Shown here: piece after piece, positions 17,782 to 54,172 of the stretch | Position numbering within the stretch: position 1 is the stretch's first letter | Layout of the letters: the number at the start of each line of letters is the position of its first letter | NCBI GenBank assembly: GCA_041665625.1 | Contig: JBAYIK010000004.1 | Span: forward strand, 26,503 to 90,502 | Length of the DNA stretch: 64,000 nucleotides | Origin: Minisyncoccota bacterium | GTDB taxonomy: Bacteria; Patescibacteriota; Minisyncoccia; Phycocordibacterales; XYD1-FULL-46-19 | Direction of reading: 5' to 3' | Made by a program: the position numbers and the translations under genes | Notes under the pieces: generated by a model | Told to the model about the DNA's origin: nothing | The model's input: the letters and a program-made list of their open reading frames with translations, nothing else | Database searches by the model: none

Positions 17782-18201
17782 ATGAATAATCTTGAACTAG
17801 AAATTGCTCAATTGCAGCAGAAGATCGAAGAGAAAAAGAACCAACTCGAACAGCAGGGTGGCATTGTCGAAGAGAAGGAACTCGTGGGAAGTGCTTTGCG
17901 TGAGATTTTTACTGGTGCTAGCGCTCCAAGTGGGGCTAGTTTGCCAGCTACTTCGGCGGCCGTTACTGCTAAAGCGAGCACTGTAACCGACGATAAGAGC
18001 ATTAGTTACCTTGATAATATTGATGACCAGACAGCTGAGACTATCAGTCTTATTATCCAGAAGCTCCCCGAGACCGGCATTGCTAAAGCGGTCTCTGAAG
18101 CTGAATTGGCTGGGCCATTTCTCGTTGATGTCCTCCATGATGCTCTCGTTGATCGTATGTATGACGAATTAGTTCAAAGAGGTTTTATTAAAACAAAATA
18201 A
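17782..18201 (+). CDS. Hypothetical protein with an N-terminal coiled coil, translationally coupled to the downstream ATPase.
   Basis: Its stop overlaps the ATG at 18201. Confidence 0.4.
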   Translation: MNNLELEIAQLQQKIEEKKNQLEQQGGIVEEKELVGSALREIFTGASAPSGASLPATSAAVTAKASTVTDDKSISYLDNIDDQTAETISLIIQKLPETGIAKAVSEAELAGPFLVDVLHDALVDRMYDELVQRGFIKTK

Positions 18202-27437: not shown

Positions 27438-27465
27438 TACTCTTTTATTATAACCAATTTAGTTT

Positions 27466-29628
27466 TTAGTTTCTAGGGCGATAAGGGCTAGAAGGTGGAT
27501 TAACTGGATTTGTTGAAGGCTTCAAACCTTTTTTGTTAGCCCATTCAGGATCTGCTTGCTTGATTGAGAGATTGATACGATGTTTCTCATCAATTTCTTT
27601 AATCACAACTGGAACGATATCCCCAATTTTTAGAGCATCAGCAACTTTATCAATTCTGAAGTTGGCAATTTCGGAGACGTGCACTAGTCCATCAGCATCC
27701 TTGCCAATTTGGACAAAAGCGCCGAAGTCCATGAGTCTAACAACTTCACCTTCAAAACGTTCTCCAACTTTATAAACATGGCAAATGCCCTCAATCATTT
27801 CTTTGGCGGCATTGGCTTGGTCAGTCTTGCCGGTGATGTAGACAGTGCCGTCATCTTCAATCTCTACGACAGCGCCAGTATCAGCGGTAATTTGTTGGAT
27901 CATCTTGCCGCCGGGGCCGATAACAGCACCAATCTTGTCGGTAGGGATCATTATTTTAAGAATCTTTGGAGCTGAAGCATTAATCTCGGCACGTGGAGCT
28001 GGGATGGCCGCGACCATAACAGCAATAATTTTTTCACGAGCGACACGAGCATTATCAATCGCTTTCTCGAGAATGGCGACCGGGATGCCACCCATTTTAA
28101 TATCTAATTGGATGCCAGTGATGCCAACAGTGGTGCCGGCTACCTTAAAGTCCATATCACCATAGTGGTCTTCGACGCCTTGGATGTCAGTAATAAGTTC
28201 ATACTTATCATCATTCTCATACATTAAGCCGATAGAGATACCGGCGACTGGTCTTTTGATTGGTACTCCCCCATCCATAAGAGCGAGGGTACTAGCGCAG
28301 ACCGAAGCTTGAGAGCTTGAACCATTAGAAGCTAAGACTTCAGAGACGAGACGAATGGTATAAGGAAATTCTTCACGAGAAGGGATAACTCCACGTAGAG
28401 ATTTCTCAGCAAGAGCTCCATGGCCAATTGAACGGCGAGAGGTATTGCCAACACGCCCAGTTTCACCAACCGAATATGGAGGGAAATTATAATGATGGAA
28501 GAAGTACTTCATGCTGTCTACCTCCATCCCTTCAACAATGAGTGAGTCACGTGGTCCGCCAAGAGTTAGGGTCGTTAAGACGTGAGTGGCACCGCGATAG
28601 AAGAGGCCGTTACCATGAACAACTTTAGAAAAACCACCAGCTTGAGCAAAGAGAGGGCGCACTTCATCAAGAGCCCGGCCATCGGTGCGACGTTTTTTCT
28701 CAATCGCCTCCATGTGAACAACTTCATCAATCTGTTTTTCAAAATAATTTAACCAAGCGCCAAGGTTAGCCTCGGGCATTTTCTCGGTGCGGAGTTTAAG
28801 CCAATCCTCTTTGAGACTGTCTGAAGATTTTTTGCCAGTTCCTTCAAACATAACCCCTTCAATTTTTGGAGCAATATTTTCTTTGAACAAAGATTCGGCC
28901 TCGGCGGGAATAGTGGGGATATTAAGAACGAGTTTTGGCTTGGCCATCTCAGCAATAATTTGCTTCTGCCAGATTTGGATTTTCTCAATTTCTTCCTGAG
29001 CCTTTCTTAGGGCTTCTTTAACTTTAGCCTCAACAATTTCATTGCCAGCGGATTCGATCATACTGATCTTACCTTCACCACCACAAACTAAGAGATCAAA
29101 AATTCCAGTTGTTCGTTCCGTGAAAGTTGGGTTGATAACTAGGTTTTCATTTCCCTCCATTTGCCCCAGGCGCACCGAACTAACGGGCCCACCCCAAGGA
29201 AGTTCTGATGTCGCGAGCGCCAGCGATGCGCCAATAACAGCTGGGACGTCGGCATCATTGTCTTCGTCCATGGCGAGTACAGTAATAATTACTTGAATTT
29301 CGTTGCGAATAGCACTATCAAAAAGAGGACGAATAGTGCGGTCAACAATACGCCCCGTGAGGACGGCCTCTTCACTAGGTCTACCCTCTCTTTTGATGTA
29401 ACGAGCTCCACCAATCTTGCCGGCGGCATAATAACGCTCTTCGTATTCAACGGTGAGCGGGAAATAATCGCTGTCCTCCTTCGTATTAGGAGACATAACG
29501 ACGGTGGCGAGCAACATGGTCTCACCATACTTCAAAATAACTGAGCCAGTGGCTTGGTCGGCAATGTCAGTAAACATGGCCGTTAACGTGCGACCTCCGA
29601 CTTCTAACGAATATTCTTTTTTAGTCAT
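27466..29628 (-). CDS. pnp: Polynucleotide phosphorylase.
   Basis: Two RNase PH-like domains plus KH and S1 regions (GERFEGEVVRLMDFGAFV). 720 aa. Confidence 0.95.
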   Translation of the reverse strand: MTKKEYSLEVGGRTLTAMFTDIADQATGSVILKYGETMLLATVVMSPNTKEDSDYFPLTVEYEERYYAAGKIGGARYIKREGRPSEEAVLTGRIVDRTIRPLFDSAIRNEIQVIITVLAMDEDNDADVPAVIGASLALATSELPWGGPVSSVRLGQMEGNENLVINPTFTERTTGIFDLLVCGGEGKISMIESAGNEIVEAKVKEALRKAQEEIEKIQIWQKQIIAEMAKPKLVLNIPTIPAEAESLFKENIAPKIEGVMFEGTGKKSSDSLKEDWLKLRTEKMPEANLGAWLNYFEKQIDEVVHMEAIEKKRRTDGRALDEVRPLFAQAGGFSKVVHGNGLFYRGATHVLTTLTLGGPRDSLIVEGMEVDSMKYFFHHYNFPPYSVGETGRVGNTSRRSIGHGALAEKSLRGVIPSREEFPYTIRLVSEVLASNGSSSQASVCASTLALMDGGVPIKRPVAGISIGLMYENDDKYELITDIQGVEDHYGDMDFKVAGTTVGITGIQLDIKMGGIPVAILEKAIDNARVAREKIIAVMVAAIPAPRAEINASAPKILKIMIPTDKIGAVIGPGGKMIQQITADTGAVVEIEDDGTVYITGKTDQANAAKEMIEGICHVYKVGERFEGEVVRLMDFGAFVQIGKDADGLVHVSEIANFRIDKVADALKIGDIVPVVIKEIDEKHRINLSIKQADPEWANKKGLKPSTNPVNPPSSPYRPRN

Positions 29629-29730
29629 CTCTAAATTGGGAGTGTTAGCCAGATTTTAGATCTGGTTATTACCAAACCTACATATCCAGCCACCACTCAA
29701 CTTAAATTATTAATACCTAGACTTTACCAT

Positions 29731-29767
29731 AAAAAAACCCGGGCGACCACTTGTGGCGGTCGCCCGG
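29731..29767 (-). terminator. Intrinsic terminator on the minus strand: a 10-bp GC stem plus a U-run.
   Basis: CCGGGCGACC pairs with GGTCGCCCGG, followed on the minus strand by TTTTTTT. Confidence 0.55.
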
Positions 29768-29793
29768 AAACGGGGGGTTTGGGCATTGGGTTT

Positions 29794-29997
29794 TCATCGT
29801 GGGAGAGGGCGTTCTTTTGCCCCTCCTTCTTGCCGCGAGGAAACGACGGGTTCCCCTTCTTGACCATCATGGCTCTGGGACTGAAGCCTGAATTTGAGAT
29901 CTTCCCGGCGGTCGAGCTCCCGATACTCATCCTTTAGTTTTCTCGCAAACCAAAGAACAACGAGTGCAAAAAGAATATATCCCAGCAGAATCTTCAT
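29794..29997 (-). CDS. Small single-transmembrane protein of 67 aa. This is where the GC-rich block begins.
   Basis: AGGAGG ribosome-binding site upstream. MKILLGYILFALVVLWF transmembrane helix. Higher GC than pnp. Confidence 0.4.
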   Translation of the reverse strand: MKILLGYILFALVVLWFARKLKDEYRELDRREDLKFRLQSQSHDGQEGEPVVSSRQEGGAKERPLPR

Positions 29998-30075
29998 GTT
30001 TTAGACCTCCTATTTTTCTCGCCCATGCGAGAAGCCTAATTTCTACTTCTAATTATAACTAACTTTGTACATTTT

Positions 30076-30117
30076 GTCAAAAGCAAAAGGCAGGGGTGGA
30101 ACTGGTCCACCTCTGCC
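30076..30117 (-). terminator. Intrinsic terminator after the SPFH-like gene.
   Basis: An approximately 12-bp stem, GGCAGGGGTGGA pairing with TCCACCTCTGCC, followed on the minus strand by TTTTGCTTTTG. Confidence 0.5.
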
Positions 30118-30158
30118 TCGGGTTCGGTCACGAAATTACAAAGTTGTTTCCGCCGTCA

Positions 30159-31196
30159 TTATTTGGCGGCGGGAGCTGTTGGGGCCGGTGCGGGAGCAGG
30201 AGCCTCGGGTTTCGGAGCGAACTCCTCGGGGCTGAACTTTTCGAGGTCGATGACCTCTTTCGGGTGCACCTTCGCTTCTGCCTTCGCGCCCGCCCGGATG
30301 CCGTCTGGATGAAGCATCTGTGTAAGCTGGGAATTCCCCATCATCTGTTTCATGTCCTCTACGTTCGTCCCGTAGGGGTACATAATGAAACAATTGTTTG
30401 GACCTTGCGCCGCCGACGAGAGTGCCCGGATTTGCCACCAAACCAAGTATTCAGGGGAATCTTTCAGTTCCTCCTTCACGATGCGAATTCCGCCCGCGAC
30501 GCCCTCGGCTTTCTCTTTCTCCACAAGGGCCTGGGCTTTCTCCACTTCGACCTGGCCTTGAGCACGCTCGAGATCGGCTTTGACCTCGTTCTTGGCCGCC
30601 TGTTGAAGCAACTCGGTTGCGGCCAACTTTTCTTGGGCGGCGGTGATGCTTGCCGGCCAATCATAGTTGGAAATCTCCGAGTCGACAATTGCCAGGGGTG
30701 TTGCTGCCGAGGCTTCCATCAGTTGTTTCCTGACTTCCACCCCGAGCTTCATGCTGTTCGCGATGCAGGCGTTGATGTCCGGTTGGACCTCATAAACCTG
30801 ACGCGGAATGGCCTGGGCCTTCATCTTGATAAAGGTATCGTACATCTGTTTGACCGTAATCTTGTTCTCGGCATCAGCCAAAACAGATTCGAAAGCCTTC
30901 TGCATGGCCTGCTTGTCCTCGACATTGGCCCGCACACGGCAGGTGAAATCATATTTCAGATTCACCTTGCCGTTCACGAGGATATTGAGTGTCTCGTTGA
31001 ACGCTTGGTTGGTCGTTTCCAGCAGGTAGACTTTGTCCCGCGGATTGCTCCAGTGGTTGCCCACCGGCAGAATCTCGGTACCCCAGCCACTGGGCGTCCG
31101 CACGCGCCCGATATATCCGGGCGGTACTGTGACGGTGCAACCCGCCAGTATGAACACGGCCAACATCAGCATCAGAATCTTCGCGCTTGTTTTCAT
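30159..31196 (-). CDS. Lipoprotein with an SPFH/band-7-like domain and a C-terminal coiled coil plus an Ala/Pro tail.
   Basis: Lipobox ILAGC after the internal Met (MKTSAKILMLMLAVFILAGC). Coiled-coil region rich in A, E, K and Q. High-GC codon usage. Confidence 0.45.
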   Translation of the reverse strand: MKTSAKILMLMLAVFILAGCTVTVPPGYIGRVRTPSGWGTEILPVGNHWSNPRDKVYLLETTNQAFNETLNILVNGKVNLKYDFTCRVRANVEDKQAMQKAFESVLADAENKITVKQMYDTFIKMKAQAIPRQVYEVQPDINACIANSMKLGVEVRKQLMEASAATPLAIVDSEISNYDWPASITAAQEKLAATELLQQAAKNEVKADLERAQGQVEVEKAQALVEKEKAEGVAGGIRIVKEELKDSPEYLVWWQIRALSSAAQGPNNCFIMYPYGTNVEDMKQMMGNSQLTQMLHPDGIRAGAKAEAKVHPKEVIDLEKFSPEEFAPKPEAPAPAPAPTAPAAK

Positions 31197-31278
31197 GATC
31201 TCTTTCCTCTCATTCCATCTTTGTTTTTGTGTACCTGCCGGCATCAACCGGTATGGCACGTCACGTTGCTTGTGCCGG

Positions 31279-31788
31279 CTACTTGGCCGGCGATGCAGGG
31301 CTCGCCGTTCCAGTCCGTTGCTGGATATCAGCGTCGTGCTTCTTCATCGCCTTGTCGAAGTCGCTGAGGGCGTCTTCGTGCTTCTCAGTGTCGAGCTTCT
31401 TGGCATCGGCAGCAGTCTGCTCCATCTCGGCCTTGGTCGGCAGTTGCGAGTTTTTCACTGCTTCCAGTTCCTTGATCTCGGCTGGCGACTGGTAGTGCGA
31501 AGTGCTCGTCGTGAATGACTGCTTCACGTTCCAGGCGACGTTCACCGCGGAAATGAAGCCGACGACAACGATCACTGAAATGATCGCCGGCCCGATAATA
31601 CTGGGCATCAGCTCCGTCTTTTCCGCGTCAATTGCCGTCTTGCACTTCTTGAGGAAGCTCCGCCAAATCTTGTATAGCCAGTAAGCCAGGAGGATGCCAA
31701 CAATTAGGGCCCCTCCATAGAAAATCCAGCCATACGGGTTCGTCCCCATCATGTTCATCCTGTTCTCCTTTTCTCTCTTTGGTTTCAC
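31279..31788 (-). CDS. Membrane protein of unknown function, GC-rich.
   Basis: Two or three transmembrane helices followed by a charged tail. Confidence 0.45.
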   Translation of the reverse strand: MKPKREKENRMNMMGTNPYGWIFYGGALIVGILLAYWLYKIWRSFLKKCKTAIDAEKTELMPSIIGPAIISVIVVVGFISAVNVAWNVKQSFTTSTSHYQSPAEIKELEAVKNSQLPTKAEMEQTAADAKKLDTEKHEDALSDFDKAMKKHDADIQQRTGTASPASPAK

Positions 31789-31970
31789 ACCTGTTTTGCG
31801 CAGCTCTCACTTGGCTGCATCTCTGAAAATACTAATAGAAAAAGCATCCTCAAAGATGCAGCCAAAACAACTAAGTAATTTTTAAGGAACTATTGCTGGT
31901 GCGATGATAACATAAATCATATGGCCTGTCAACATCAATCTTGCCAAAACAGAGATGTTGTGTCAATCAC

Positions 31971-32013
31971 AAAAATAGCCCCAAGGCCATGAAGTCCTGG
32001 GGCTATTTTTTAA
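31971..32013. terminator. Bidirectional intrinsic terminator with an A-run and T-run on either side of the hairpin.
   Basis: AGCCCCAAGG-loop-CCTGGGGCT, followed by TTTTTT. Lies directly after the stop of the NYN gene. Confidence 0.5.
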
Positions 32014-32016
32014 GAT

Positions 32017-32568
32017 TTATATATGAACCTTAGGAACTGGTTTGCGGGGAGATCCACCGGGCATATTGATGAGATACTTGCGAGGATTCTCAGAGAGATC
32101 TAAGAAGTCGTCCGCAATTTCACGCAATTTCCCGGAGGAACTTTTGCCGAAGGCAATGACTTCTACTTGAGCGCCCATATTTTCTTTAAGATATTCAACT
32201 AACGGGACAAAGTCTCCGTCGCCGGAGCCGATGATGACAGTGTCTAACTTAGGGGCAAGCTTGATGGCATCTACGGCCAAGCCCACATCCCAGTCAGCTT
32301 TCTTGGAGCCATCGACGAAGATTTGGAGATCCTTGGTTTTGACTTCAATACCAATTTTACCAAGGGCTTCAATAAAATTCTTCTCGTCCCCGGCTTCGGT
32401 TGTGACCATATAGGCCATTGCCCGGATAAGTTGGCGACCACCTAAAGCATCTTTTAATACTTGGCCGAAGTTAACGCGAGCGCCACCATAGAGATTCTTG
32501 GCACTATGATAGAGGTTTTGGGTGTCGATAAAAATGCCGACACGCTGGTTCTTATGTTTGATACTCAT
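32017..32568 (-). CDS. NYN/LabA-like (PIN-fold) domain protein.
   Basis: Motifs VGIFIDTQNL, DWDVGLAVDAI and IGSGDGDFVPLV, typical of LabA/NYN. Confidence 0.7.
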   Translation of the reverse strand: MSIKHKNQRVGIFIDTQNLYHSAKNLYGGARVNFGQVLKDALGGRQLIRAMAYMVTTEAGDEKNFIEALGKIGIEVKTKDLQIFVDGSKKADWDVGLAVDAIKLAPKLDTVIIGSGDGDFVPLVEYLKENMGAQVEVIAFGKSSSGKLREIADDFLDLSENPRKYLINMPGGSPRKPVPKVHI

Positions 32569-32683
32569 AAAAAATTATTAATTAATGAAACTTATAAAAA
32601 TTGCTTACTCTAAGTAATCGAGTAAATAGAGAAAACTATCTTGATTTTAAACCAAGATCAATACAAAAGAAAGGAAGAAAAAA

Positions 32684-32932
32684 TTAAGCAGCCGCTTTGA
32701 GTTCAGCTTTACGCTTTTGGGCGTCAATATAGCGCTGATGAGAACGGCGATCAGAGACAAGTTTAAGTAGTCCACGACGAGAGTGGAAATCTTTTGGGTT
32801 TTTCTTAAGGTGGCTGGCGAGTTCCTCAATTCTTTCGGTAATCAAAGAAACTTGCACTTCGGCCGAGCCGGTGTCTTTGTCATGCTTCTGGACCTTTTTG
32901 ATAATGGTCTCTTTCTTTTTTGTTGAAATCAT
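32684..32932 (-). CDS. rpsO: 30S ribosomal protein S15.
   Basis: Motif DTGSAEVQV...HSRRGLLKLV. The start was set at the second Met (MISTKKK) because the -10 element lies inside the longer ORF. Confidence 0.85.
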   Translation of the reverse strand: MISTKKKETIIKKVQKHDKDTGSAEVQVSLITERIEELASHLKKNPKDFHSRRGLLKLVSDRRSHQRYIDAQKRKAELKAAA

Positions 32933-32941
32933 GGTGTCGTT

Positions 32942-32970
32942 AGTATAGCACACGCCCTAAAATAATGCAA
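32942..32970 (-). promoter_or_regulatory. Promoter for rpsO, TTGCAT-17-TATACT, giving a leaderless or very short leader.
   Basis: The minus strand reads TTGCAT, 17 nt, TATACT, then 9 nt before the ATG. Confidence 0.45.
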
Positions 32971-33037
32971 CCCCCACACCAACTTTTGCATTATTGGGTT
33001 TTGCGCTTTTATCGCGATGTAAAAGTTGGTGTGGGGG
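32971..33037. promoter_or_regulatory. Long hairpin of 21 bp with one G-U or mismatch and a 25-nt loop. It lies at the junction of the high-GC block and rpsO and is probably a terminator or insulator.
   Basis: CCCCCACACCAACTTTTGCAT pairs with ATGTAAAAGTTGGTGTGGGGG. Confidence 0.5.
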
Positions 33038-33137
33038 CATGCCCCCTTGTGTTGAGCATAAGAAAGGGGCCCATACTGCTGTCACGTGGTCGTGGCTAGC
33101 GCGTAGGGCCCCAGGGGGAAGAGAAACGAGAACGGTG

Positions 33138-34190
33138 TTACCACCAGAAGCTGAATCGTGCCTCAATCTTGACCGGGCTTTCCATCCCCAGGTCTTGTTT
33201 TGATGAGGCGATGGTTTTCACCGCGTCGAGGGTCAAGGTTGTTGTCCTCTTCTGGTCGAGCCAGAAGCGGAGTCCGGCGGTGGCATTGACCTCGTAACCA
33301 GTCGCACTCTGCAGGGTGACCCGGTCTATTGAGATCTCGCCTTTGTCTGACACACTGAACTGTGTTTCCTCCCAGCTTTTGGCTTGGAGGCTCCACCAAT
33401 CTATCATCCCATGAATTTCAACTCGCGGGAGGGGTTCCCAGGCGGCGAGCGTATAGCCCCCGACCAAGTCACTCGTCCTGGAGTCGTTCATGGCGAAGTA
33501 GATAGCACTCCTTAGGTACAAGTTTTCTGCCAGCGCCGCGTTGGCGTCAATGGCAAAACGTTTGTAATCCTCGGAGCACTGGAGTGTGCCGGCAAGCCAA
33601 CTTTTGCCGAAGTTCTTCTGGAGTCGGGCTGAAACTTCCAACCCTCTCCAGTTCTCTTCGCTATCGAAGGGCACTACCGAGCGCCCACCGACGTCGGCCA
33701 TGATCAGCCAGCCGTCCTCGTCTTTTGACGAATACTCAACTTGTGCACCCCAGATGAAACTTCCCGTGGGGTCACAATTCGGGTACGAGACGGTCTCGTT
33801 CAATGCAGCGATGGGGGTGGTGAAACCTCCAGCGGCAAAGAATCTCCCGACTCGGAGCTTCCAGTTCTCATCGACTTTGTACCAGGCGTTGGCCAGCATC
33901 AAATAATTTTTGCTGGTTTCTTCCTGGAACTGGGCGAAGTTGATCAGGAGCTCTGTCCCCCACCGGCCGGACTTCCCGGTTAGGTTGGAGGAAAGACGGA
34001 AGTTTGTCAGCGAGAGGTCTCGCTGTCCGTCTGTTGAGTACCCATAGGCCTGGACCAGTCCGCGCAGCTTGAGCTTTGCGAACCCCAGGTCCATTGAGTG
34101 GACGAGGCCGGGTTCGTTCTCTTGCCCCATTGCGCTAGCCACAATTGCCAGCAGACAAAACACAAACGCCAAGATCATAGACTTCTTCAT
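33138..34190 (-). CDS. Signal-peptide protein with an aromatic C-terminus (..RFSFWW). It looks like an outer-membrane beta-barrel (porin-like) protein.
   Basis: Signal peptide with cleavage site ASA-MGQ. Alternating beta-strand-like pattern. Terminal aromatic residues. High GC. Confidence 0.4.
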   Translation of the reverse strand: MKKSMILAFVFCLLAIVASAMGQENEPGLVHSMDLGFAKLKLRGLVQAYGYSTDGQRDLSLTNFRLSSNLTGKSGRWGTELLINFAQFQEETSKNYLMLANAWYKVDENWKLRVGRFFAAGGFTTPIAALNETVSYPNCDPTGSFIWGAQVEYSSKDEDGWLIMADVGGRSVVPFDSEENWRGLEVSARLQKNFGKSWLAGTLQCSEDYKRFAIDANAALAENLYLRSAIYFAMNDSRTSDLVGGYTLAAWEPLPRVEIHGMIDWWSLQAKSWEETQFSVSDKGEISIDRVTLQSATGYEVNATAGLRFWLDQKRTTTLTLDAVKTIASSKQDLGMESPVKIEARFSFWW

Positions 34191-34194
34191 GGTT

Positions 34195-35538
34195 CTATCC
34201 TTCCGTAACTGTTGCCAGTCCGGAAAGACAAAGCGTTGTGCTTGTCTGATTTTTCCGAACTAGCGCACTAATCGGCGGACCACGCGGTTTCACCGCGTTC
34301 CAGCTGAAACGCTGGAGCGGTTGCGTGATCTCTCGGAATTCTCCCTCTTCACTTTCCACATCCCCAGTCTCTTCGACCGGAGCCGTAAGGATTGCAAAGA
34401 CTTTGAACTCCTTATGAAGTGGCACCCACCTTGCGGTGCTTGCCACTTTTTCTTCGTCAGTTATCTTGTTGACGAGAGGAGCTTCGGCGACACAGGCGAC
34501 AATAGTGGGCTGCAGGGTGTCGGCGTTTCCTCTGATGTGGAACCCGAACAAAATCCCCATTACCCAAACCATGGCACAAACCGCGACCGATTGCTTCAAG
34601 ACTTGACCAGAGGCTAGGAAGGACTCCAATGCTTCATTGAAAGCAAGTAGCGGTTCTTCGACCTGACGCAGGATTGCTTGTCTCTCTGCTTCGTTCAACC
34701 TGTAGCCGAACTCTTTCCCTGACAAGTATTCTCGCTCCAATTTCTTGAAGCGGTAGGCCTTGCCAGTAGCGTTGTCCATGACGATGAACCCGATCGGGCC
34801 ACAGAGCGTGGCCTTGAGGAAGACCATTGGGCGGAGCATGAGCTCTTCCCTTAGTTTCTTCCCCGCGTACCTGATGTCCAAGAGAACAATCAGTAGAAAT
34901 GGCAAGGTCATTAACCAATACCACTTCATGCTTGTCCTGACTGCCCACCAGAATGCTCGGCCAAGGGAGCCATCGTCGTAGGCCTTACCTAGGGCCCCGT
35001 TTTCCCCGTCTCTTTCGGCGACGGCTTCACGGCACTCGTCTTCGAAGGCTTGCATCGCACAGATCTGTCTCGCTGTTTCGGTCCTTATTTCCCCTCGGAA
35101 ATCTGGGCCGGGTTGCCAACGTTCTATGTAGCTCTTTCTGATCAGGCTGTCCTTTCCCCAAACTGATTCATACGAGACCATGAAGCCCAGCTTGATCTTC
35201 AGCTGGTCGCTTCTCCAAGAAGCTTGAAGCATCTCTTTGACAGAGACACCCCCCTTCTCGATACCCTCCTGGATTCTTTGCTTGAGGACAAGGAACTCAT
35301 CTTCGGCTCTCTCTCGTTCGGGTGTTCCTTGGAGCAGGACGGGAGAATCCTCAAACTTGAGTTTCCCAATCCAGTCCCAGTTTCCGCCCAGCATGAGAGT
35401 TAGAACGATGAGCCCGGCGGAGATCAGCTTCTGCCCCCAGGGCATCTTACTGATCTTTGTTTCTAGCCGGCTCGGTTCGGTCGGTTGGTAGTTTCTACGT
35501 CGTCTGTACTCGAATTGTTCGTAGTACATTTCTTTCAC
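34195..35538 (-). CDS. Membrane protein of unknown function, GC-rich.
   Basis: 447 aa. Ribosome-binding site AGGAGGTG upstream and a TTGACA -35 element. Several transmembrane helices. Confidence 0.45.
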   Translation of the reverse strand: MKEMYYEQFEYRRRRNYQPTEPSRLETKISKMPWGQKLISAGLIVLTLMLGGNWDWIGKLKFEDSPVLLQGTPERERAEDEFLVLKQRIQEGIEKGGVSVKEMLQASWRSDQLKIKLGFMVSYESVWGKDSLIRKSYIERWQPGPDFRGEIRTETARQICAMQAFEDECREAVAERDGENGALGKAYDDGSLGRAFWWAVRTSMKWYWLMTLPFLLIVLLDIRYAGKKLREELMLRPMVFLKATLCGPIGFIVMDNATGKAYRFKKLEREYLSGKEFGYRLNEAERQAILRQVEEPLLAFNEALESFLASGQVLKQSVAVCAMVWVMGILFGFHIRGNADTLQPTIVACVAEAPLVNKITDEEKVASTARWVPLHKEFKVFAILTAPVEETGDVESEEGEFREITQPLQRFSWNAVKPRGPPISALVRKNQTSTTLCLSGLATVTEG

Positions 35539-35667
35539 CTCCTTTCGTTACGAATTTTCTCGTTTTTCTTGTCAAAGACCGAATCTCAACCGACAGGGTT
35601 GAGTTTGTGTACTCTGCATTTCTGGCATAAATTATGTAGTTTGTCAATATCAGAAAATTAAACTCAA

Positions 35668-35696
35668 GGGTCGCCGGCGACAGGCGCGGGCGACCC
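35668..35696 (-). terminator. GC hairpin (GGGTCGCC pairing with GGCGACCC) directly after a stop codon.
   Basis: An 8-bp stem. A moderate U-rich tract follows on the minus strand. Confidence 0.35.
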
Positions 35697-35697
35697 T

Positions 35698-36093
35698 TTA
35701 TCTGGCAAGTTTCCCCCTTTTTCTTTTGCTTTTCTTCCTCTTGAAATCAAGGAGAACCTTGCCGGACTCAATTGCCTTCTCTGGAGTGTACGGTCCGAAG
35801 CGAAGTGGAGAAATTGTCTCCCGGAGAAGGACTCTCCCATTCCTACCGATATACTCGATGGAACGCTTTTCCCCGTTGCATGGCCAGACGATCCAGAGTG
35901 GCTCTCCCCACCACTTCCTTATCTCGCTGAGCCCTTCTTCCCAGTCGTGTCTGTTGTTGGGGATAATGACGATCAAGTCACCCTTGATAAGGGCTAGACA
36001 ATTAAAAAGATCAGGAACGTGGTCGTCCATGTCAATTGGCCCTTTCCTAGGGGTTGTGTTATTTGAAATTGAGAACTTTCTGGTTATTAACAT
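35698..36093 (-). CDS. Hypothetical protein, GC-rich.
   Basis: 131-aa ORF with a basic C-terminal tail. Confidence 0.4.
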   Translation of the reverse strand: MLITRKFSISNNTTPRKGPIDMDDHVPDLFNCLALIKGDLIVIIPNNRHDWEEGLSEIRKWWGEPLWIVWPCNGEKRSIEYIGRNGRVLLRETISPLRFGPYTPEKAIESGKVLLDFKRKKSKRKRGKLAR

Positions 36094-36110
36094 GACATTT
36101 TTGCCTTGCT

Positions 36111-36140
36111 ACGTCAATAAAAAAGACCCGTGTCGTGGGT
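36111..36140 (-). terminator. Intrinsic terminator that closes the hammerhead-punctuated operon.
   Basis: The minus strand reads GACCC-ACGACAC-GGGUC followed by UUUUUUAUU. Confidence 0.45.
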
Positions 36141-36194
36141 CTTACGGCTCATTTATTATCCAGTCGAGCTTCTGGTTTCTGCCACAGCAGAGGG

Positions 36195-36605
36195 TTAGCG
36201 GAGGTCAAGGAGAAGCCACGCTTCAGCGATCATGTCTGGCTGGAATTCTTCGTGAATCCAGACAGCTTCCTCGCTGATGTGGCCGCCACCCATTCCTCCC
36301 GGGATGTGGTTTAGGTCTGTCGCCGGGTCGCAGTCGAATTCAGCGATCTGCTGGGTTATTGCACTCGGCGAGTAGATGTAGATGCTACTTCCCTCCCCCT
36401 CGTTGCAATCCCAGGCCACGTCATCGAGCTTGCGTGAGAGAGTGAGAATGCGGGCTCTCGGTCCGATCAGCGAGAGAGGAACGGTCAAGTAAATCTGACC
36501 ACCCCAATCACCTTCGAAGATGAGCCACCAATCAGTGAAGACGCTCTCTCGCGCCTGCTGGCAGAAACTGGTCAGCACAGCTTGCTCATGTGCGAGCGTC
36601 TTCAT
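36195..36605 (-). CDS. Hypothetical protein: cargo ORF d of the hammerhead array.
   Basis: 136 aa. AAAGGG ribosome-binding-site-like sequence about 30 nt downstream of HHR1. Confidence 0.45.
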   Translation of the reverse strand: MKTLAHEQAVLTSFCQQARESVFTDWWLIFEGDWGGQIYLTVPLSLIGPRARILTLSRKLDDVAWDCNEGEGSSIYIYSPSAITQQIAEFDCDPATDLNHIPGGMGGGHISEEAVWIHEEFQPDMIAEAWLLLDLR

Positions 36606-36637
36606 AGCGAACCCTTTCGGTTAGTTAAAGATCAATC

Positions 36638-36690
36638 CGTTTTCGCTCTTTTGAGCTCATCAGTCGAGACACACATCTCGAGAACGGGGC
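36638..36690 (-). ncRNA. Hammerhead ribozyme, type III (HHR1).
   Basis: The minus strand reads CCCCGUUC^UCGAGA-UGUGUG-UCUCGA CUGAUGAG CUC-AAAA-GAG C GAAA ACGG. The full catalytic core (CUGAUGA...GAAA) is present. Stems I and II are capped by loops, and stem III is open. Confidence 0.7.
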
Positions 36691-36742
36691 CCAATTTGAT
36701 ATCTGGTTGGGCTTCCAGGTTATAACGCTTCGGGTTTCTCAT

Positions 36743-37171
36743 TCACTCCTTCCACCGGAAGGTGGGCCTATCACTAGGCAGTTCGTATTCGGGGTGCAAT
36801 TCCTGAAATTCTTGGAATTGATAGATATAACACCCCGGAGCCATCCCGGGAATGTCATCGGGTCCAAAAGACCCTTTCTGTTTCGCCCCGGTTGTGGAGA
36901 ACTGGAGAACGAGCTTGGCGTGATCTTCTTGGAGTTCGATGTCCAAGAATTTCTCCCAGTTGACGTGGGAACAGTCGCAGGGAACAACGACACAATTATA
37001 CGTGTGCAGCTCCCGGCAATATTCCTCGCCCAAATGGTTTCCCCATTGCTCTCTCCAATTGTCCATTAGCAACAAATGGGAGTGCCCAGCCAAGCAGATC
37101 TCCACCATCTCCACGCCGCCGTTTGAACACGCGCCACTTCTGTCCCACTGCACGACTTGGGCCTTCATGAT
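36743..37171 (-). CDS. Hypothetical Cys/His-rich protein: cargo ORF c.
   Basis: The start was set at MKAQ, which has an AAAGGAG ribosome-binding site 7 nt upstream. An A9 tract lies just 5' of the ribosome-binding site. Confidence 0.45.
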   Translation of the reverse strand: MMKAQVVQWDRSGACSNGGVEMVEICLAGHSHLLLMDNWREQWGNHLGEEYCRELHTYNCVVVPCDCSHVNWEKFLDIELQEDHAKLVLQFSTTGAKQKGSFGPDDIPGMAPGCYIYQFQEFQELHPEYELPSDRPTFRWKE

Positions 37172-37584
37172 GTTTCTCCTTTTTTTTTGCGATATAAAGA
37201 ACAACTCCCCTGTGAAAGTACGACACATGTCGCGCTCTCAATAAGGGAGTCGATTTTTTTAGGATCGACTCAAAAACTTGCGATTGATTGCCCTACCTGA
37301 CGAGCAACCTGGCGTCCCTTGGGTGTCCCGCACTCTCCCGGACCCATGTTCTGGGAAGGAGTCCTTTCGGAGGAAACGTGCAACCATCTCTTTGTTTGTT
37401 ACGGGTTGTTGTGCTGCCGTATCAGAGGAGATTGGCTGTCCAGTCAGAGAGGGTGCTAGCAGCCCTCGTGGACAAGACGGCGGGGTTAAGGAATTAGCCA
37501 TTCACTTTATTATCGACAGCTTTTGTGGCATATCGACGCGGGTGACTTACCGTGACCTCACGTGCTATGGGGATCGCCTACTCC

Positions 37585-37629
37585 CTGCACCGATTTATTT
37601 TCCAAAACTGAAAGACAAATCGGTGCAGG
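37585..37629 (-). promoter_or_regulatory. Conserved 12-bp-stem hairpin accompanying HHR2.
   Basis: CTGCACCGATTT, a 21-nt loop, then AAATCGGTGCAG. Confidence 0.5.
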
Positions 37630-37654
37630 CAATCGCTTTAATTTAAAGAACAAT

Positions 37655-37709
37655 CCGTTTTCGTCATTTCTGACTCATCAGTCGAGACACACATCTCGAG
37701 AACGACGCC
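37655..37709 (-). ncRNA. Hammerhead ribozyme, type III (HHR2).
   Basis: The minus strand reads GGCGUCGUUC^UCGAGA-UGUGUG-UCUCGA CUGAUGAG UCA-GAAA-UGA C GAAA ACGG. Stem II covaries relative to HHR1. Confidence 0.75.
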
Positions 37710-37741
37710 AATTTTATCCAGATTGGCAAACTGGGCCACGG

Positions 37742-38134
37742 TTACCCGGTGCCGAACACTCGAACACTAATGCGCTCGCGTTCGGTCTCTGTTCCGTGGG
37801 CCACCCCAAGCAGGAAGACCTGCGTGAGAAGGCGTTCGAGGGCTGCACCAGCGCTTTCATCGTCAGCACTGGCGGTGCGGGCAACGGCGGCGACCAAGTC
37901 TTCGCCGGGGTTGTAATCCCTTTCCACTTTGCCGAACGCCGGCTCGTGGCACAGGATAACTTCCCCGTCGGTTTCCTTGGCGTACTCTTCACGGCTTACA
38001 CCGATCAAGTACAGGCCAACCTTGCTGTCGACCTGGGACGCAAGAACGTACAACATATCTCCCCCTTTCTTGGTGGTTTGTTGTGTCTGGCTTGCCCGAT
38101 TCATCGGCACGTCATTGTTCGGCAACATCCCCAT
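37742..38134 (-). CDS. Hypothetical protein: cargo ORF b.
   Basis: 130-aa ORF. Its stop lies about 40 nt upstream of the HHR2 cleavage site. Confidence 0.45.
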   Translation of the reverse strand: MGMLPNNDVPMNRASQTQQTTKKGGDMLYVLASQVDSKVGLYLIGVSREEYAKETDGEVILCHEPAFGKVERDYNPGEDLVAAVARTASADDESAGAALERLLTQVFLLGVAHGTETERERISVRVFGTG

Positions 38135-38640
38135 GACCTATCCCCCCCCTCTTTGTTTGTAAAGATCAAACTCCTCAGGAAACACGAGACTATCTCACAT
38201 TCCCATTAAGAGGGCCGAGTCAGGAGGACTCGGCCGAGATGAGAACCAACCATTATTTTTCTTCTGGGTTGGCCAGACTTTGTCGACAGTGTAGGCTATT
38301 CTCTTTTTACCTACCGTCCCAGGAGAGTCCTTGCCGAAGGGATAATGCATGGCCAACTCGTCGCCCTCTGATTTTTATTTCTCCCGATTATTAAATCAGA
38401 TGGGTTGTGCAGTGAGAGGTATCTCTCGGGCTCGTCAGACCCATTCAGCCCTCCTTGACGGAGAAGGGTTGTCCTTCCTGTTGGGTGCTCCCAACATTTT
38501 GGAAGTTAGAGTTTGGGGACTTACCGACACAGAGCGGATCGTGGCCTTTTGGCGACGATAAAACCGCTGGCGGACTTACTCCCTCCACCGGGTAGACCTC
38601 AGCCTACCCCAGAGTAGGTTGCTCGGGTACCTGCACGCAC

Positions 38641-38686
38641 CTGCAACGATTTATTTTTGATGTTAATCAAACGCAAATCGTTGCAG
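38641..38686 (-). promoter_or_regulatory. Conserved 12-bp-stem hairpin accompanying HHR3.
   Basis: CTGCAACGATTT, a 22-nt loop, then AAATCGTTGCAG. The C-to-A and G-to-T changes relative to the copy at 37585 preserve pairing. Confidence 0.5.
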
Positions 38687-38702
38687 GCGCAAATTCAAGG
38701 AT

Positions 38703-38757
38703 CAAACTGTTTCGTCCTTCCGGACTCATCAGGGAGAGAAGATACCCTCCGACAGTT
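38703..38757 (-). ncRNA. Hammerhead ribozyme, type III (HHR3).
   Basis: The minus strand reads AACUGUC^GGAGGG-UAUCUU-CUCUCC CUGAUGAG UCC-GGAA-GGA C GAAAC AGUU. This is a textbook minimal-plus-loops hammerhead. Confidence 0.8.
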
Positions 38758-38786
38758 ACCGGAAGGGGTTGAACCTTCCGGCTGGA

Positions 38787-38936
38787 CTACCTCGCGCTCC
38801 CTACTGGGTTGACGAGAATCCGTTTTTCGAACACCTGTTGGGATGGGTCAACAGAACCCTTGGGCCGGCCAGCCCAGGTAAATCCGGCCTTGCGCAACAT
38901 TTGGGTTGCGACTTTCTCCGCTTCCTTCTGGCTCAT
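38787..38936 (-). CDS. Small ORF a of 49 aa, the first gene of the hammerhead array.
   Basis: GGAG sequence 8 nt upstream of the ATG. Translation is MSQKEAEKVATQMLRKAGFTWAGRPKGSVDPSQQVFEKRILVNPVGSAR. Below the 60-aa threshold of the ORF track. Confidence 0.3.
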   Translation of the reverse strand: MSQKEAEKVATQMLRKAGFTWAGRPKGSVDPSQQVFEKRILVNPVGSAR

Positions 38937-39070
38937 GGATAATTCTCCTTTGGGCTGTGCCCGGTTTGGAATCCATTCCCTTCTGAGCCGCCAGACTGTA
39001 TTACTTGCTGGCTAGCTCGGAAGGAAACAGATTCACTTACCTTTCCCCTCTTTCAAGGTATCTGCTAGGC

Positions 39071-39098
39071 ATTATACTCAGAATCAGAAGTTTGTCAA
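39071..39098 (-). promoter_or_regulatory. Consensus sigma70-like promoter (TTGACA-16-TATAAT) driving the hammerhead-punctuated operon.
   Basis: The minus strand reads TTGACA (39098-39093), 16 nt, then TATAAT (39076-39071). Confidence 0.5.
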
Positions 39099-39370
39099 GT
39101 GCTTTTGACATAAAAACAAAAGTCATCACTTCGTACCCACAAAATATGGCTATAAATAAGAATATTTAGACATCATGATTTTGATAAAGTATAATGACAT
39201 TACTTAAAAACAAGTTTGTCAAAACAATTTTTATTTAAATTTTGTTTAAAATTTTTGACGCATGTCTTTTCTAAAAATATTTGAGAAGAACACAAAACTC
39301 TTATTTTTCAACAAATCTTTGCCAAAATAACAAAAATATGGCCTAAAATAAGCCATTTTGTTGAAACTAC

Positions 39371-39399
39371 TTGACAAACTCTTGCGGTCTGCTATACTT
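39371..39399 (+). promoter_or_regulatory. Consensus-like promoter TTGACA-17-TATACT.
   Basis: TTGACA at 39371-39376 and TATACT at 39394-39399. Confidence 0.5.
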
Positions 39400-39406
39400 A
39401 CACCGT

Positions 39407-39770
39407 ATGTTCTTTTGACTTTATCGTTCCCAACCAGAAGGAGGGTTTGCCATGACTGACTAGGTCGGCGCTTGAGCGTCGCCAGCTAGCCCTATCATGG
39501 CGGCTAGCTGGCGATGTTCTAGGCCCAAAGCTAGTCAAAACCTGAATTCCTGGGGCGTAACGTAAAGTGAGTCTGGAGAGTGTTTTTGCCCAAACCAAAG
39601 GAGGATCCTGAAATGGGCGACTAGGGCCGGACAGAGACCATGATTGGTCGAGATTGATCGAGGGTAACCTGGGGATACATTCCCCACGCTGCCAATTGGT
39701 AGCAGAAGAGCAAGCAAAAGGGGCCTAGCGCAGTCGTTACGACGACAAGCGGAGGCCCCAATCTTTTTTC
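39407..39770 (+). ncRNA. Candidate structured non-coding RNA of about 360 nt. Unassigned family.
   Basis: No plus-strand ORF. GC-rich relative to its flanks. A perfect 11-bp hairpin (GCCAGCTAGCC pairing with GGCTAGCTGGC) and several other stems. Ends with GGGGCCU...AGGCCCC followed by UCUUUUUU. Confidence 0.4.
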
Positions 39771-39775
39771 TCAAA

Positions 39776-40522
39776 TTATTTCTTTAGTTTATCAAAAGCT
39801 AAGCTAAAAAGGCTTCTCATCGTGTCAGCAAAGTCTTTGTTTGTTATAGAGATTGCCCCAATCTTCTTCCCCAGGATATTTATTTTTACTTTATTCTTGT
39901 AAATGGCAATGTCACAACTTAGGGGATATTTATCTTGTTCGATTTTTATTCTTTCACTTGTATTGTCACTTGGGCGGCTAGTTTTTTCTGAGGTATATAA
40001 GACTTTATTTTTTACATTTTTACCTAATCTTATTTCCCTTAGCTGGGTTAATTCTTTTTCTGTAAATGTTTCGTCAATGAGGTCTTTGGGATAAATTAAA
40101 TAAGAAATCCCCTCTTTGTCTTCAGAACTAAAGAAGTCCTGCATTGAGCTTATTATTCCTTCTCTTCCTTCAAAGTATTTTACTACCGGTCTCTCCCCGC
40201 TCTCGCGTTGGATGCTCTTGAGTTGAGGGATAATGTCAGTTAGACGTTTGGAATTCTCTTCTAAGACAACCTTCTGGCGCTCGATAAAAGATTCTAATCT
40301 CTCTGGCGGCTCGGCTTGGTAATGAGTTTTTTTATCGACTTGAATTTCACTCACTAAGCCCTTCTTGGCCAGTGTTTCTAACACTGGGTAAATGGTCGTG
40401 CGGTTTACCTTTGTTTTGTTGGCTAATTCAACGACTGAGGCGCTGTCATATTGCAAGAGAGCCACATAAACTTCGGCTTCTTTATTTGATAATCCAATTT
40501 GCTCTAAGTATTTTTCAAACAT
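39776..40522 (-). CDS. TrmB-family HTH transcriptional regulator.
   Basis: N-terminus LSNKEAEVYVALLQYDSASVVELANKTKVNRTTIYPVLETLAKKGLV, a winged-helix motif of the TrmB type. Confidence 0.7.
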   Translation of the reverse strand: MFEKYLEQIGLSNKEAEVYVALLQYDSASVVELANKTKVNRTTIYPVLETLAKKGLVSEIQVDKKTHYQAEPPERLESFIERQKVVLEENSKRLTDIIPQLKSIQRESGERPVVKYFEGREGIISSMQDFFSSEDKEGISYLIYPKDLIDETFTEKELTQLREIRLGKNVKNKVLYTSEKTSRPSDNTSERIKIEQDKYPLSCDIAIYKNKVKINILGKKIGAISITNKDFADTMRSLFSLAFDKLKK

Positions 40523-48280: not shown

Positions 48281-48601
48281 TCAGGCAGGGCAAGTTTCAT
48301 TGTAGGCAAGACTTTGCCAGTATTCTTTGTAGTGCTCCCAGCCTTCGGGCGGAGTTGCAGGGTGACCAACCTTCAAACCAGTGTAATAAAGATTGAGCTC
48401 CTTTTGCCCTTCTTCCCAAGCGATTGAGAACATGTGGGCGAAGCCTATCTGGACGTACCAGACGAAGACTTCGGTGTCGGTCAGGGCTCTCCCCTCCATG
48501 AGGACTGCGGTGTCGCGGTAGCGCATCGCATCTTGGTATTGAGTGAGGTTTCTCAGGCGCATCTCCTCTTCCTTGCGAAGAGTTTCATCTGTGACTTCCA
48601 C
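48281..48601 (-). CDS. Hypothetical protein.
   Basis: 106-aa ORF with no recognisable motif. Confidence 0.35.
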   Translation of the reverse strand: MEVTDETLRKEEEMRLRNLTQYQDAMRYRDTAVLMEGRALTDTEVFVWYVQIGFAHMFSIAWEEGQKELNLYYTGLKVGHPATPPEGWEHYKEYWQSLAYNETCPA

Positions 48602-54129: not shown

Positions 54130-54140
54130 AATTACCAATC

Positions 54141-54172
54141 AAAAAACCAGCCGGTGTAGGGACTGGTTTTTT
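54141..54172. terminator. Intrinsic terminator between alr and hup.
   Basis: A-run, a short stem ACCAG pairing with CTGGT, then TTTTTT. Confidence 0.45.

Follow-up and report, generated by a model that had tools for sequence, protein, structure and literature searches.

A 64-kb stretch of DNA from a Minisyncoccota bacterium (contig JBAYIK010000004.1, positions 26,503 to 90,502; referred to below as the window) contains two blocks of GC-rich genes in AT-rich surroundings, and the question raised by this locus is where the blocks come from. Block 1 (about 29.7-31.8 kb) encodes, among others, an SPFH-like lipoprotein, and block 2 (about 33.0-39.1 kb) a protein resembling an outer-membrane beta-barrel. 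Bacteria belonging to the Candidate Phyla Radiation (CPR, Patescibacteria) are regarded as monoderm, and both the nature of their envelope and the way in which they take up resources from hosts are largely obscure. An earlier reading of the sequence (the original prediction) had suggested that the blocks were acquired horizontally from a diderm donor or, alternatively, that the assembly was chimeric. Our analysis favours another answer: with a probability of about 0.7, the blocks are authentic Paceibacterota (CPR) DNA and represent flexible islands of envelope modules, whose GC excess would be kept up by repeated exchange among CPR lineages.

Composition of the blocks and integrity of the assembly

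The GC content of the whole window is 44.6%. Determined in 1-kb windows, it reached 0.50-0.56 in two stretches, 29.5-32.0 kb and 33.0-39.0 kb, whereas values of 0.42-0.47 were found for 31.5-33.0 kb and of 0.39 past 39.0 kb. For the GC content of third codon positions (GC3), 44 host-like genes of the window served as reference (mean 0.433, standard deviation 0.058). Relative to this set, the z-scores of the block genes were between 2.2 and 5.5, with 4.4 for the SPFH gene, 5.5 for the gene of the 169-aa membrane protein next to it, 4.5 for the barrel gene and 3.1 for the gene of a 447-aa membrane protein (the GC3 values of these genes and of the smaller open reading frames, ORFs, are in Table 1), and the GC3 of block and host genes differed with p = 8.6e-6 in the Mann-Whitney test. 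Both C and G are more frequent at third positions of the blocks, where they rise from 0.25 to 0.33 and from 0.18 to 0.32, respectively. The tetranucleotide correlation with the rest of the window, calculated in 2-kb windows, was 0.21-0.55 in the blocks and mostly 0.75-0.92 outside them, with a lesser dip (0.57-0.68) at 54-62 kb. GC, GC3 and tetranucleotides thus agree on the abrupt switches that had originally been recognized by eye, the small transmembrane (TM) protein gene of block 1 alone being host-like at GC3. The NYN-domain gene and rpsO between the blocks, which had been described as returning to the style of the host, do so with GC3 values of 0.50 and 0.46, respectively.

Abrupt switches of composition could also indicate a chimeric or mis-binned assembly of CPR and other DNA, which was the second explanation offered originally. 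Several observations contradict it. In the Logan assembly of SRR6484324, whose reads are possibly shared with the assembly of the window, a contig of 9,263 bp is 100% identical to window positions 27402-36664 and crosses the junctions at 29.7, 31.8 and 33.0 kb. Further contigs of about 22 kb and 91 kb, derived from other sources, encode identical proteins, and the alternation of GC-rich modules with host-like flanks recurs, with equivalent junctions, in contigs and metagenome-assembled genomes (MAGs) of other samples. The junction at 39.1 kb is colinear with positions 6843-7467 of L003 (the loci of relatives are denoted by L numbers), and the switches of composition coincide with gene and promoter boundaries. 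Mis-assembly is unlikely, and chimerism between CPR and other DNA is, in our estimate, practically negligible.

The barrel protein and its membrane partner

The barrel protein starts with a Sec signal peptide (MKKSMILAFVFCLLAIVASA/MGQ), and a similar signal-type N-terminus was found, using a crude pattern, in 74 of the 94 family members of 280-370 aa. The AF2 model, which was calculated from a 90-sequence alignment and replaced a first model built on six sequences (pLDDT 65), had a pLDDT of 94 and a pTM of 0.86 and predicts an N-terminal signal helix and 18 strands. Strand 5 is followed by a long loop (residues 119-144) containing the most conserved motif of the family, GR.F.AGG..TP....ETV.YP; in its position this loop presumably recalls the constriction loop L3 of porins. 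When the model was compared with the PDB by Foldseek, the matches were OmpU, OprP/OprO, OmpT, OmpF and OmpC (E 2.6e-11 to 1e-8, probability 1.0, TM-scores 0.55-0.62), and the top match among viral structure models was annotated 'Phosphate-selective porin O and P'. The hydropathy difference between the two faces of the strands was 2.62, as compared to 1.54 ± 0.26 in shuffled sequences, and none of 2000 shuffles gave a value as high. The C-terminal residue is F, W or Y in 122 of 145 family sequences (84%), and F in 114 of them; the protein of the window ends in W.

At the level of sequence the barrel falls into none of the curated porin families. Its score with the Pfam family Porin_O_P (PF07396) was 13.2 bits (E 0.053), and that of P0050, the top-scoring family member, 18.7 bits (E 0.0011), both under the cut-off of 20.9 bits. 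NCBIfam gave nothing above cut-off for the barrel, and neither the barrel profile nor that of its partner found anything meaningful among PDB sequences. The confident model, the structural matches to porins and the amphipathic strands strongly support the prediction of a beta-barrel, as originally proposed for this ORF.

The gene of the 447-aa polytopic membrane protein (the partner) is always directly upstream of the barrel gene. The two genes are separated by 4 nt in the window and overlap by 4 nt in L012 and L016, and they are probably translationally coupled. About two dozen family members are fusion proteins, with a shorter membrane domain ahead of the barrel. The partner protein diverges very fast, so fast that a word-indexed search with the 447-aa sequence found only two matches, and it had no family or structure match in Pfam or among PDB sequences. 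Homologues of the 131-aa ORF occupy the same position in L017 and L010, and this ORF is therefore the third member of a conserved unit. The 131-aa ORF, the 447-aa membrane protein and the barrel together make up the proximal part of block 2, which is conserved in the clade as a unit. Unlike block 1 and the operon containing hammerhead ribozymes in the distal part of block 2, this unit is present in all clade relatives.

An RNA-like element (34195-34330) overlaps the end of the partner gene. It is conserved across five genomes at the nucleotide level, synonymous sites included. The structure predicted from the five sequences has 43 pairs, with 95% of the cells paired and seven compensatory pairs, and these values were matched by none of 500 shuffles. 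One of the predicted helices is formed with the Shine-Dalgarno sequence of the barrel gene. No Rfam family matched the element, which may serve in translational control. A gene of the TrmB regulator family adjoins the partner-barrel pair in the window (39776-40522), in L003 (5653-6405) and in L012 (10093-10845), in three different orientations, and one of these three genomes is distant. TrmB may be a regulator of the pair.

Distribution of the modules and persistence of the GC excess

An NCBI entry of a Candidatus Paceibacterota bacterium, located on the 91-kb contig, has exactly the sequence of the SPFH protein. The genes flanking the blocks are typical of CPR: they encode VirB4/TraG-like and coupling-protein ATPases, RNase Y, H+-pyrophosphatase and the CCA-adding enzyme. 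Only six close homologues of the barrel were found among 5.8 billion clusters. A profile search without word filter, covering 1.84 billion representatives, extended the family to 141 clusters, which have diverged to 20-30% identity over several CPR lineages. Five true members carry a name, and each of them is assigned to CPR (Patescibacteria group, Candidatus Paceibacterota, Parcubacteria or Buchananbacteria). The three genome records with a barrel are likewise of CPR (Paceibacterota, Vogelbacteria and one MAG labelled Saccharibacteria). The sole match from outside CPR, a Roseomonas repeat protein (E 6e-5), was weak, extended over multiple stretches and was rejected as spurious. Judged by sequence matches, the envelope modules are so far seen in CPR genomes only, as far as their sources are named.

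Searches directed at phages and defence systems yielded little or nothing. IMG/VR contained no relatives of the barrel family, the SPFH gene, the 161-aa ORF of block 2 or the sequence of hammerheads 2 and 3, and tblastn detected no barrel in GenBank phages. PADLOC defence models gave nothing for ten block proteins, and the SPFH gene was the only block gene matching PHROGs. Scans of JGI metagenome contigs yielded merely two short fragments. The literature searched mentioned no porin or beta-barrel of CPR, Patescibacteria or Parcubacteria and no hammerheads in CPR.

The GC excess of the barrel gene is not confined to the window. In 10 of 10 CPR genomes its GC3 exceeded the median of the neighbouring genes, by 0.06-0.32, and in eight of them it was higher than that of every neighbour. 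Four-fold sites differ by 53-68% between orthologues, and the number of synonymous substitutions per site (dS) was 1.3-2.8 for all genes even in comparison with L017, the closest relative found (polynucleotide phosphorylase 93% identical at the protein level). With synonymous sites saturated, the GC excess is not that of a fresh import which has not yet ameliorated. The ratio of nonsynonymous to synonymous substitution (dN/dS) relative to L017 was 0.10 for the barrel and 0.13 for the partner; both are under purifying selection. The L016 genome provides a further comparison: the GC3 of its barrel gene is 0.65, whereas that of the adjoining tuf, fusA and ribosomal genes is 0.29-0.39. Codon bias linked to expression was rejected as an explanation, as tuf, fusA and the ribosomal genes of L016 are AT-rich at third positions. 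The excess of GC is a standing property of the module families wherever they are met in CPR.

Gene order and exchange of alleles

The order of genes in L017 is xerC, a 123-aa ORF, partner, barrel, a gene for a periplasmic binding protein, rpsO, NYN and pnp; NYN is directly followed by pnp, and the TrmB gene and the hammerhead operon are absent. L009 and L010 have xerC, (ORF), partner, barrel and rpsO, and L003 has xerC, partner, barrel, TrmB, leader ORF with one hammerhead and a hairpin, rpsO, NYN and pnp. In L002 the interval between xerC and the barrel gene (3138-7425) contains an MmeI-like restriction-modification gene, two small ORFs and a DUF3800 gene. The presence of restriction-modification genes in L002 marks this interval as a hotspot for accessory genes. 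The L002 MAG is labelled Saccharibacteria, yet its genes for xerC and the CCA enzyme are 75-79% identical to those of the window.

In the more distant L012, L015 and L016 the partner-barrel pair is found at unrelated loci. In L016 (6757-9029), a MAG with about 33% GC3, the pair lies on the opposite strand between fusA and tuf, and this insertion breaks the otherwise conserved order rpsL-rpsG-fusA-tuf-rpsJ.

Adjacent genes of the locus do not group the genomes in the same way. The rpsO, NYN and xerC genes group the window, L004 and L010 against L009 and L003. The barrels group the window with L004 (79%) and L010 with L009 (83%), and the partners L004 with L010 (80%) and the window with L009 (46%). 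In a sliding-window comparison of L004 and L010, nucleotide identity was 94-95% over a portion of the partner gene, 45-66% over the barrel gene and 77-85% over rpsO. Since identities shift in this way along the locus, a reassortment of partner and barrel alleles between lineages must have occurred, and at least one such event is recent. The mosaic has its breakpoint in the 34195-34330 segment.

The horizontal acquisition that had been proposed originally thus stands in part. Foreign composition, the absence of block 1 and of the hammerhead operon from relatives and the exchange of barrel alleles agree with it, whereas a recent one-off import is not supported, the modules being GC-rich in every CPR genome examined although dS is above 1.

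Block 1: a probable cassette between NYN and pnp

The SPFH protein matched Band_7 (PF01145) with 31.7 bits (cut-off 23.6; E 2e-7) over residues 44-229, and PHROG 200, annotated 'lipoprotein', with E 5.5e-29. Its signal peptide ends in a lipobox conforming to the pattern [LVI][ASTVI][GAS]C (MKTSAKILMLMLAVFILAGC), and the same pattern was found in the homologues of L005 and L006. Thirteen homologues were detected, the two named ones being from Paceibacterota and Staskawiczbacteria; distant relatives with 25-29% identity occur in Pseudomonas and Aeromonas phages. The lipobox had been taken as a sign of a diderm source. Lipobox lipoproteins are normal in monoderm bacteria, and as monoderms make lipoproteins too, the lipobox of the SPFH protein does not indicate diderm origin.

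The 169-aa membrane protein shares 32-33% identity with the protein encoded immediately upstream of the SPFH homologue in L005 and in L006-L008, where the SPFH gene and a membrane partner of 160-190 aa sit together at differing loci. There, too, the pair is GC-rich: its GC3 was 0.60-0.63 vs 0.26-0.45 in L005 and 0.51-0.63 vs 0.23-0.38 in L006. The 67-aa TM protein had no family match in Pfam or NCBIfam.

Block 1 is missing from the relatives L017, L009, L003 and L004; it is a lineage-specific insertion with its own promoters and terminator. It would represent a self-contained cassette inserted between NYN and pnp, in the order promoter, 169-aa membrane protein, SPFH lipoprotein, second promoter, 67-aa TM protein and terminator. 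A 17-nt inverted repeat, 88% complementary (30133-30149 / 31865-31881), flanks the genes of the membrane and SPFH proteins, and may mark the ends of the cassette or be due to chance. It is characteristic of the clade that an NYN-domain (RNase-like) gene lies between rpsO and pnp (window 27466-32953). The spacer between NYN and pnp is a second variable site, containing block 1 in the window, a host-like gene of 253 aa in L004 and nothing in L017.

The hammerhead operon

The distal part of block 2 contains small ORFs alternating with three type III hammerhead ribozymes (Table 1). All three copies scored lower than the gathering score of Rfam RF00008 (48.5 bits). In each of them the core CUGAUGAG...CGAAA is intact, and helices II and III pair. 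Transcribed from the promoter at the edge of the block, the operon RNA would be cut by the three hammerheads into single-gene RNAs. Hammerheads 2 and 3, together with their flanks, form 73-nt repeats that are 84% identical and 1018 nt apart. The small ORFs of the operon had no relatives in Pfam, NCBIfam, PHROGs or PADLOC. Between hairpin 1 and the 130-aa ORF there is a GC-rich segment of about 500 nt (38140-38630, minus strand) without a convincing ORF, which may be a non-coding RNA freed by hammerhead cleavage.

The operon is absent from L017, L009 and L010, and the array is known only from the window. L003 (7124-7467) keeps the 49-aa leader ORF, hammerhead 1 and the hairpin. This segment is located upstream of rpsO, and the roughly 0.9 kb separating the two contain no convincing ORF. 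Along with TrmB, the distal part of block 2 (36.1-39.1 kb) is part of a variable region between xerC and rpsO. An integron-like reading of this region was considered and dropped: the recombinase is conserved and Xer-like, TrmB lies between the recombinase and the array, the elements between the ORFs are hammerheads and hairpins and not attC-like, and no cassette recurs elsewhere.

The space between TrmB and the hammerhead operon contains a candidate structured RNA of about 370 nt (39405-39775, plus strand). Its promoter, of the TG-extended type, is at 39371-39398, and a hairpin with a T-run at about 39735-39790 forms a strong terminator. Its folding energy had a z-score of -6.7 relative to shuffles. 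It had no Rfam match at E <= 1, and ARAGORN did not identify it as tmRNA.

The features of the two blocks are collected in Table 1. They bear out the gene content that had been read from the sequence originally, i.e. a Band_7/SPFH protein with a lipobox, a signal-peptide protein ending in RFSFWW, membrane proteins and three hammerhead matches, as well as the claim that the blocks have terminators of their own.

Table 1. Features of the GC-rich blocks and of the genes between them (window coordinates)
Feature	Position	Strand	Remarks
Intrinsic-terminator-like hairpin closing block 1	29738-29768	-	13 pairs, 10 of them G-C, then T-run
67-aa protein, single N-terminal TM helix	29794-29997	-	GC3 0.46; own consensus promoter 30080-30052
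SPFH/Band-7 lipoprotein	30159-31259	-	GC3 0.68; lipobox ILAGC; likely true start gives 345 aa
Membrane protein, 159-169 aa, partner of SPFH protein	31279-31788	-	GC3 0.75; promoter-like site 31932-31904
Perfect 13-bp hairpin after NYN gene	31971-32010	(-)	
NYN-domain gene, host-like	32017-32568	-	Pfam E 7e-34; relatives 88-94% identical (aa)
rpsO (ribosomal protein S15), host-like	32684-32953	-	Pfam E 9e-25
Secreted porin-fold beta-barrel (predicted), 350 aa, 18 strands, ends RFSFWW	33138-34190	-	GC3 0.69; AF2 and Foldseek
RNA-like element, ~135 nt	34195-34330	-	Overlaps last ~45 codons of 447-aa gene
Polytopic membrane protein (barrel partner), 416-447 aa, about 4 TM helices	34195-35538	-	GC3 0.61
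131-aa ORF	35698-36093	-	GC3 0.56; then terminator-like hairpin 35666-35698
136-aa ORF, last cistron of operon	36195-36605	-	GC3 0.66; then terminator 36143-36123
Hammerhead type III, copy 3	36635-36689	-	34.7 bits, E 1.9e-4
161-aa ORF between hammerheads 2 and 3	36743-37228	-	GC3 0.63
21-bp hairpin just downstream of hammerhead 2	37584-37629	-	Paralogous to 38637-38690 hairpin
Hammerhead type III, copy 2	37653-37707	-	32.0 bits, E 1.1e-3
130-aa ORF between hammerheads 1 and 2	37742-38134	-	GC3 0.68
25-bp hairpin just downstream of hammerhead 1	38637-38690	-	
Hammerhead type III, copy 1	38704-38758	-	46.8 bits, E 7e-8; ortholog L003 7336-7390
49-aa leader ORF	38787-38936	-	71% identity in L003
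Perfect consensus promoter TTGACA-16-TATAAT	39071-39098	-	Exactly at upstream edge of block 2

Other regions of the window

The H+-pyrophosphatase region (54000-57000) is a milder outlier, with a GC content of 0.48-0.50 and a tetranucleotide correlation of 0.57-0.60, which probably reflects the composition of a membrane protein. A 106-aa ORF (48281-48601, minus strand) beside tRNA-Pro(CGG) is another GC3 outlier (0.61), and its product is not exported. A rule equating GC-rich with exported genes was dropped on account of this ORF and of the mild GC enrichment of the H+-pyrophosphatase gene. VirB4/TraG-like and coupling-protein-like ATPases are encoded at 3077-4900 and 18201-20546, and two proteins of 866-874 aa without family match at 6502-11732; these genes are probably the patescibacterial type IV secretion cluster.

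Discussion

Origin of the blocks

We propose that the GC-rich modules sit, as flexible islands, around the conserved xerC ... rpsO-NYN-pnp neighbourhood, block 2 being a composite of the clade-conserved unit and the hammerhead-punctuated operon. The loci would be repeatedly exchanged and recombined among CPR, as expected of surface proteins in conflict with phages or hosts, and this exchange would keep them off the AT-rich equilibrium, the means being either a CPR gene pool richer in GC or GC-biased gene conversion.

Some observations weigh against this proposal. No mobility gene, att-like repeat or phage gene borders the blocks, and there are no flanking direct repeats. The XerC-like recombinase, 75-90% identical and syntenic across the clade, is not obviously part of the island. 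The core unit of block 2 stays next to xerC or rpsO in most relatives, and this constant position would also fit vertical inheritance combined with a gene-specific force acting on composition. We only infer the GC-richer donor pool and the biased gene conversion, and the pore function, the location of the barrel and the cleavage by hammerheads are predictions. The comparison covered about 10 loci, and most of the 141 barrel clusters carry no taxonomic name. Finally, we know of no outer membrane and no Omp85/BamA-type assembly machinery in CPR, and for this reason a classical porin role has no obvious home.

The constancy just mentioned is the strength of an explanation by vertical descent, according to which the genes are native, their GC-rich codons are held by gene-specific selection (on mRNA structure or stability, or on the translation kinetics of exported proteins) and the core of block 2 arose without transfer. 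The unit is in the same position in L017, L009, L010 and L004, its GC3 is high despite saturated dS, its genes are under purifying selection and the RNA structure at the partner/barrel junction is conserved. What this explanation does not accommodate are the incongruent trees of adjacent genes, with a segment of 94-95% identity between genomes that are otherwise 80-85% identical, and the occurrence of the pair at unrelated loci in L012, L015 and L016. In addition, block 1 is plainly an insertion, and other membrane or highly expressed genes are not GC-rich. We therefore consider purely vertical descent unlikely, although it is the least improbable of the alternatives. Somewhat more doubtful is the view that the blocks are cargo of a natively GC-richer integrative element or degraded prophage using the XerC-like tyrosine recombinase. 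A tyrosine recombinase does lie beside the variable region in every relative, and the content of this region varies (restriction-modification genes in L002, hammerheads in the window). Hammerheads are common in phage-derived DNA, and the SPFH lipoprotein matches a phage family, with copies of 25-29% identity in Pseudomonas and Aeromonas phages. However, the blocks are devoid of structural, replication and packaging genes and of flanking direct repeats, the SPFH protein is their sole PHROG match, and no relatives of the barrel, of the 161-aa ORF, of the hammerhead sequence or, at close range, of the SPFH gene turned up in IMG/VR or GenBank phages. Moreover, the recombinase, with its identity and synteny, looks like a housekeeping Xer gene.

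Recent acquisition from a diderm (Gram-negative) bacterium, the donor postulated originally, would agree with three traits that the barrel shares with Gram-negative porins (fold, signal peptide and aromatic residue at the C-terminus), with the weak Porin_O_P matches of the window protein and of P0050, and with the GC-rich composition. Against it, the exhaustive profile search revealed no diderm homologue apart from the spurious Roseomonas match, the barrel profile had no relative among PDB sequences, family members only 20-30% identical occur in several CPR lineages and orthologues show saturated dS. The informative matches, which are also the best ones, are all from CPR; as the original prediction had named best matches to other CPR genomes as evidence against it, the diderm donor fails by its own standard, and we hold it to be very improbable.

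Possible functions and implications

The barrel would most likely be a diffusion channel outside the cytoplasmic membrane, and the partner a tether or assembly factor of the barrel. The few CPR that have been described are monoderm, and envelope data are lacking for most of them (PMC8871954). Going beyond the preferred reading, one may tentatively imagine, as a possible but doubtful scenario, a true porin-type CPR barrel with a dedicated polytopic partner replacing the barrel-assembly machinery (BAM), exported to an unrecognised outer layer or to the host membrane at the contact site, and encoded by a fast-recombining conflict locus with a permanent GC-rich footprint. If this were true, a barrel at the site of host contact could serve as a nutrient conduit, and its anchor-fused versions would bridge two cells. 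It would also be the first family of barrels resembling outer-membrane proteins that is native to the presumed monoderm radiation, and would bear on whether the CPR ancestor, or some present CPR, had an outer membrane.

The barrel family offers a concrete and testable handle on the CPR envelope and on the debate about a diderm or monoderm ancestor. Lying 10-30 GC3 points above their AT-rich hosts despite saturated synonymous divergence, the modules are compositionally unusual and could provide a natural test between GC-biased gene conversion and a distinct mobile gene pool. On the practical side, genuine CPR genes of this kind are likely to be flagged or discarded by binning tools and contamination filters that rely on composition. 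The porin fold and the idea of genomic islands were known beforehand. Within the literature searched, three things appear to be new: a porin-fold family that has no sequence relatives outside CPR and carries the hallmarks of outer-membrane proteins in presumed monoderms, the obligatory coupling of a barrel to a polytopic membrane protein, and a GC-rich signature lasting through saturated divergence.

Comparison with known systems

The barrel family shares with the porins of Gram-negative bacteria (OprP/OprO, OmpU, OmpF, OmpC) the Sec-type signal peptide and a closed, amphipathic, antiparallel barrel formed by a single chain, which is predicted here, and its C-terminal Phe/Trp is as in the porin signal read by the BAM machinery. 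It differs from them in lacking significant sequence similarity and in the number of strands, 18 in the model as compared to 16 in OmpF and OprP. Unlike porins, the barrel invariably goes together with a polytopic membrane protein, either coupled or as a fusion, its gene is persistently GC-rich and recombining, and so far the family is known only from CPR, which are presumed to have no outer membrane, BAM or lipopolysaccharide.

The SPFH protein resembles the SPFH/Band-7 scaffolds (stomatin, flotillin, HflK/C and the SPFH-NfeD operons) in its Band_7 domain, its attachment to the membrane and the conserved membrane-protein gene adjoining it. However, it is anchored through a lipobox, whereas the known SPFH-NfeD type uses a TM hairpin, and its partner has no NfeD match in Pfam and NCBIfam. 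In contrast to known SPFH families, its close homologues are few and those with a name are from CPR, the next nearest being the phage family PHROG 200 at about 25%. The hammerheads have the catalytic core, the three helices and the NUH cleavage triplet of type III hammerheads (RF00008). What sets them apart from known hammerheads is that they punctuate an operon of small ORFs and that a long conserved hairpin lies downstream of both copy 1 and copy 2.

As a whole, the locus is reminiscent of the surface-protein islands of Gram-negative pathogens, such as porin and antigen loci, with which it shares atypical composition, presence/absence variation, mosaic alleles and conserved flanks. The islands described here differ from the usual ones in having no integrase, att site or tRNA signature of their own. 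Genomic islands are usually AT-richer than their host; those of the window are GC-richer, and their excess of GC has lasted across deep divergence.

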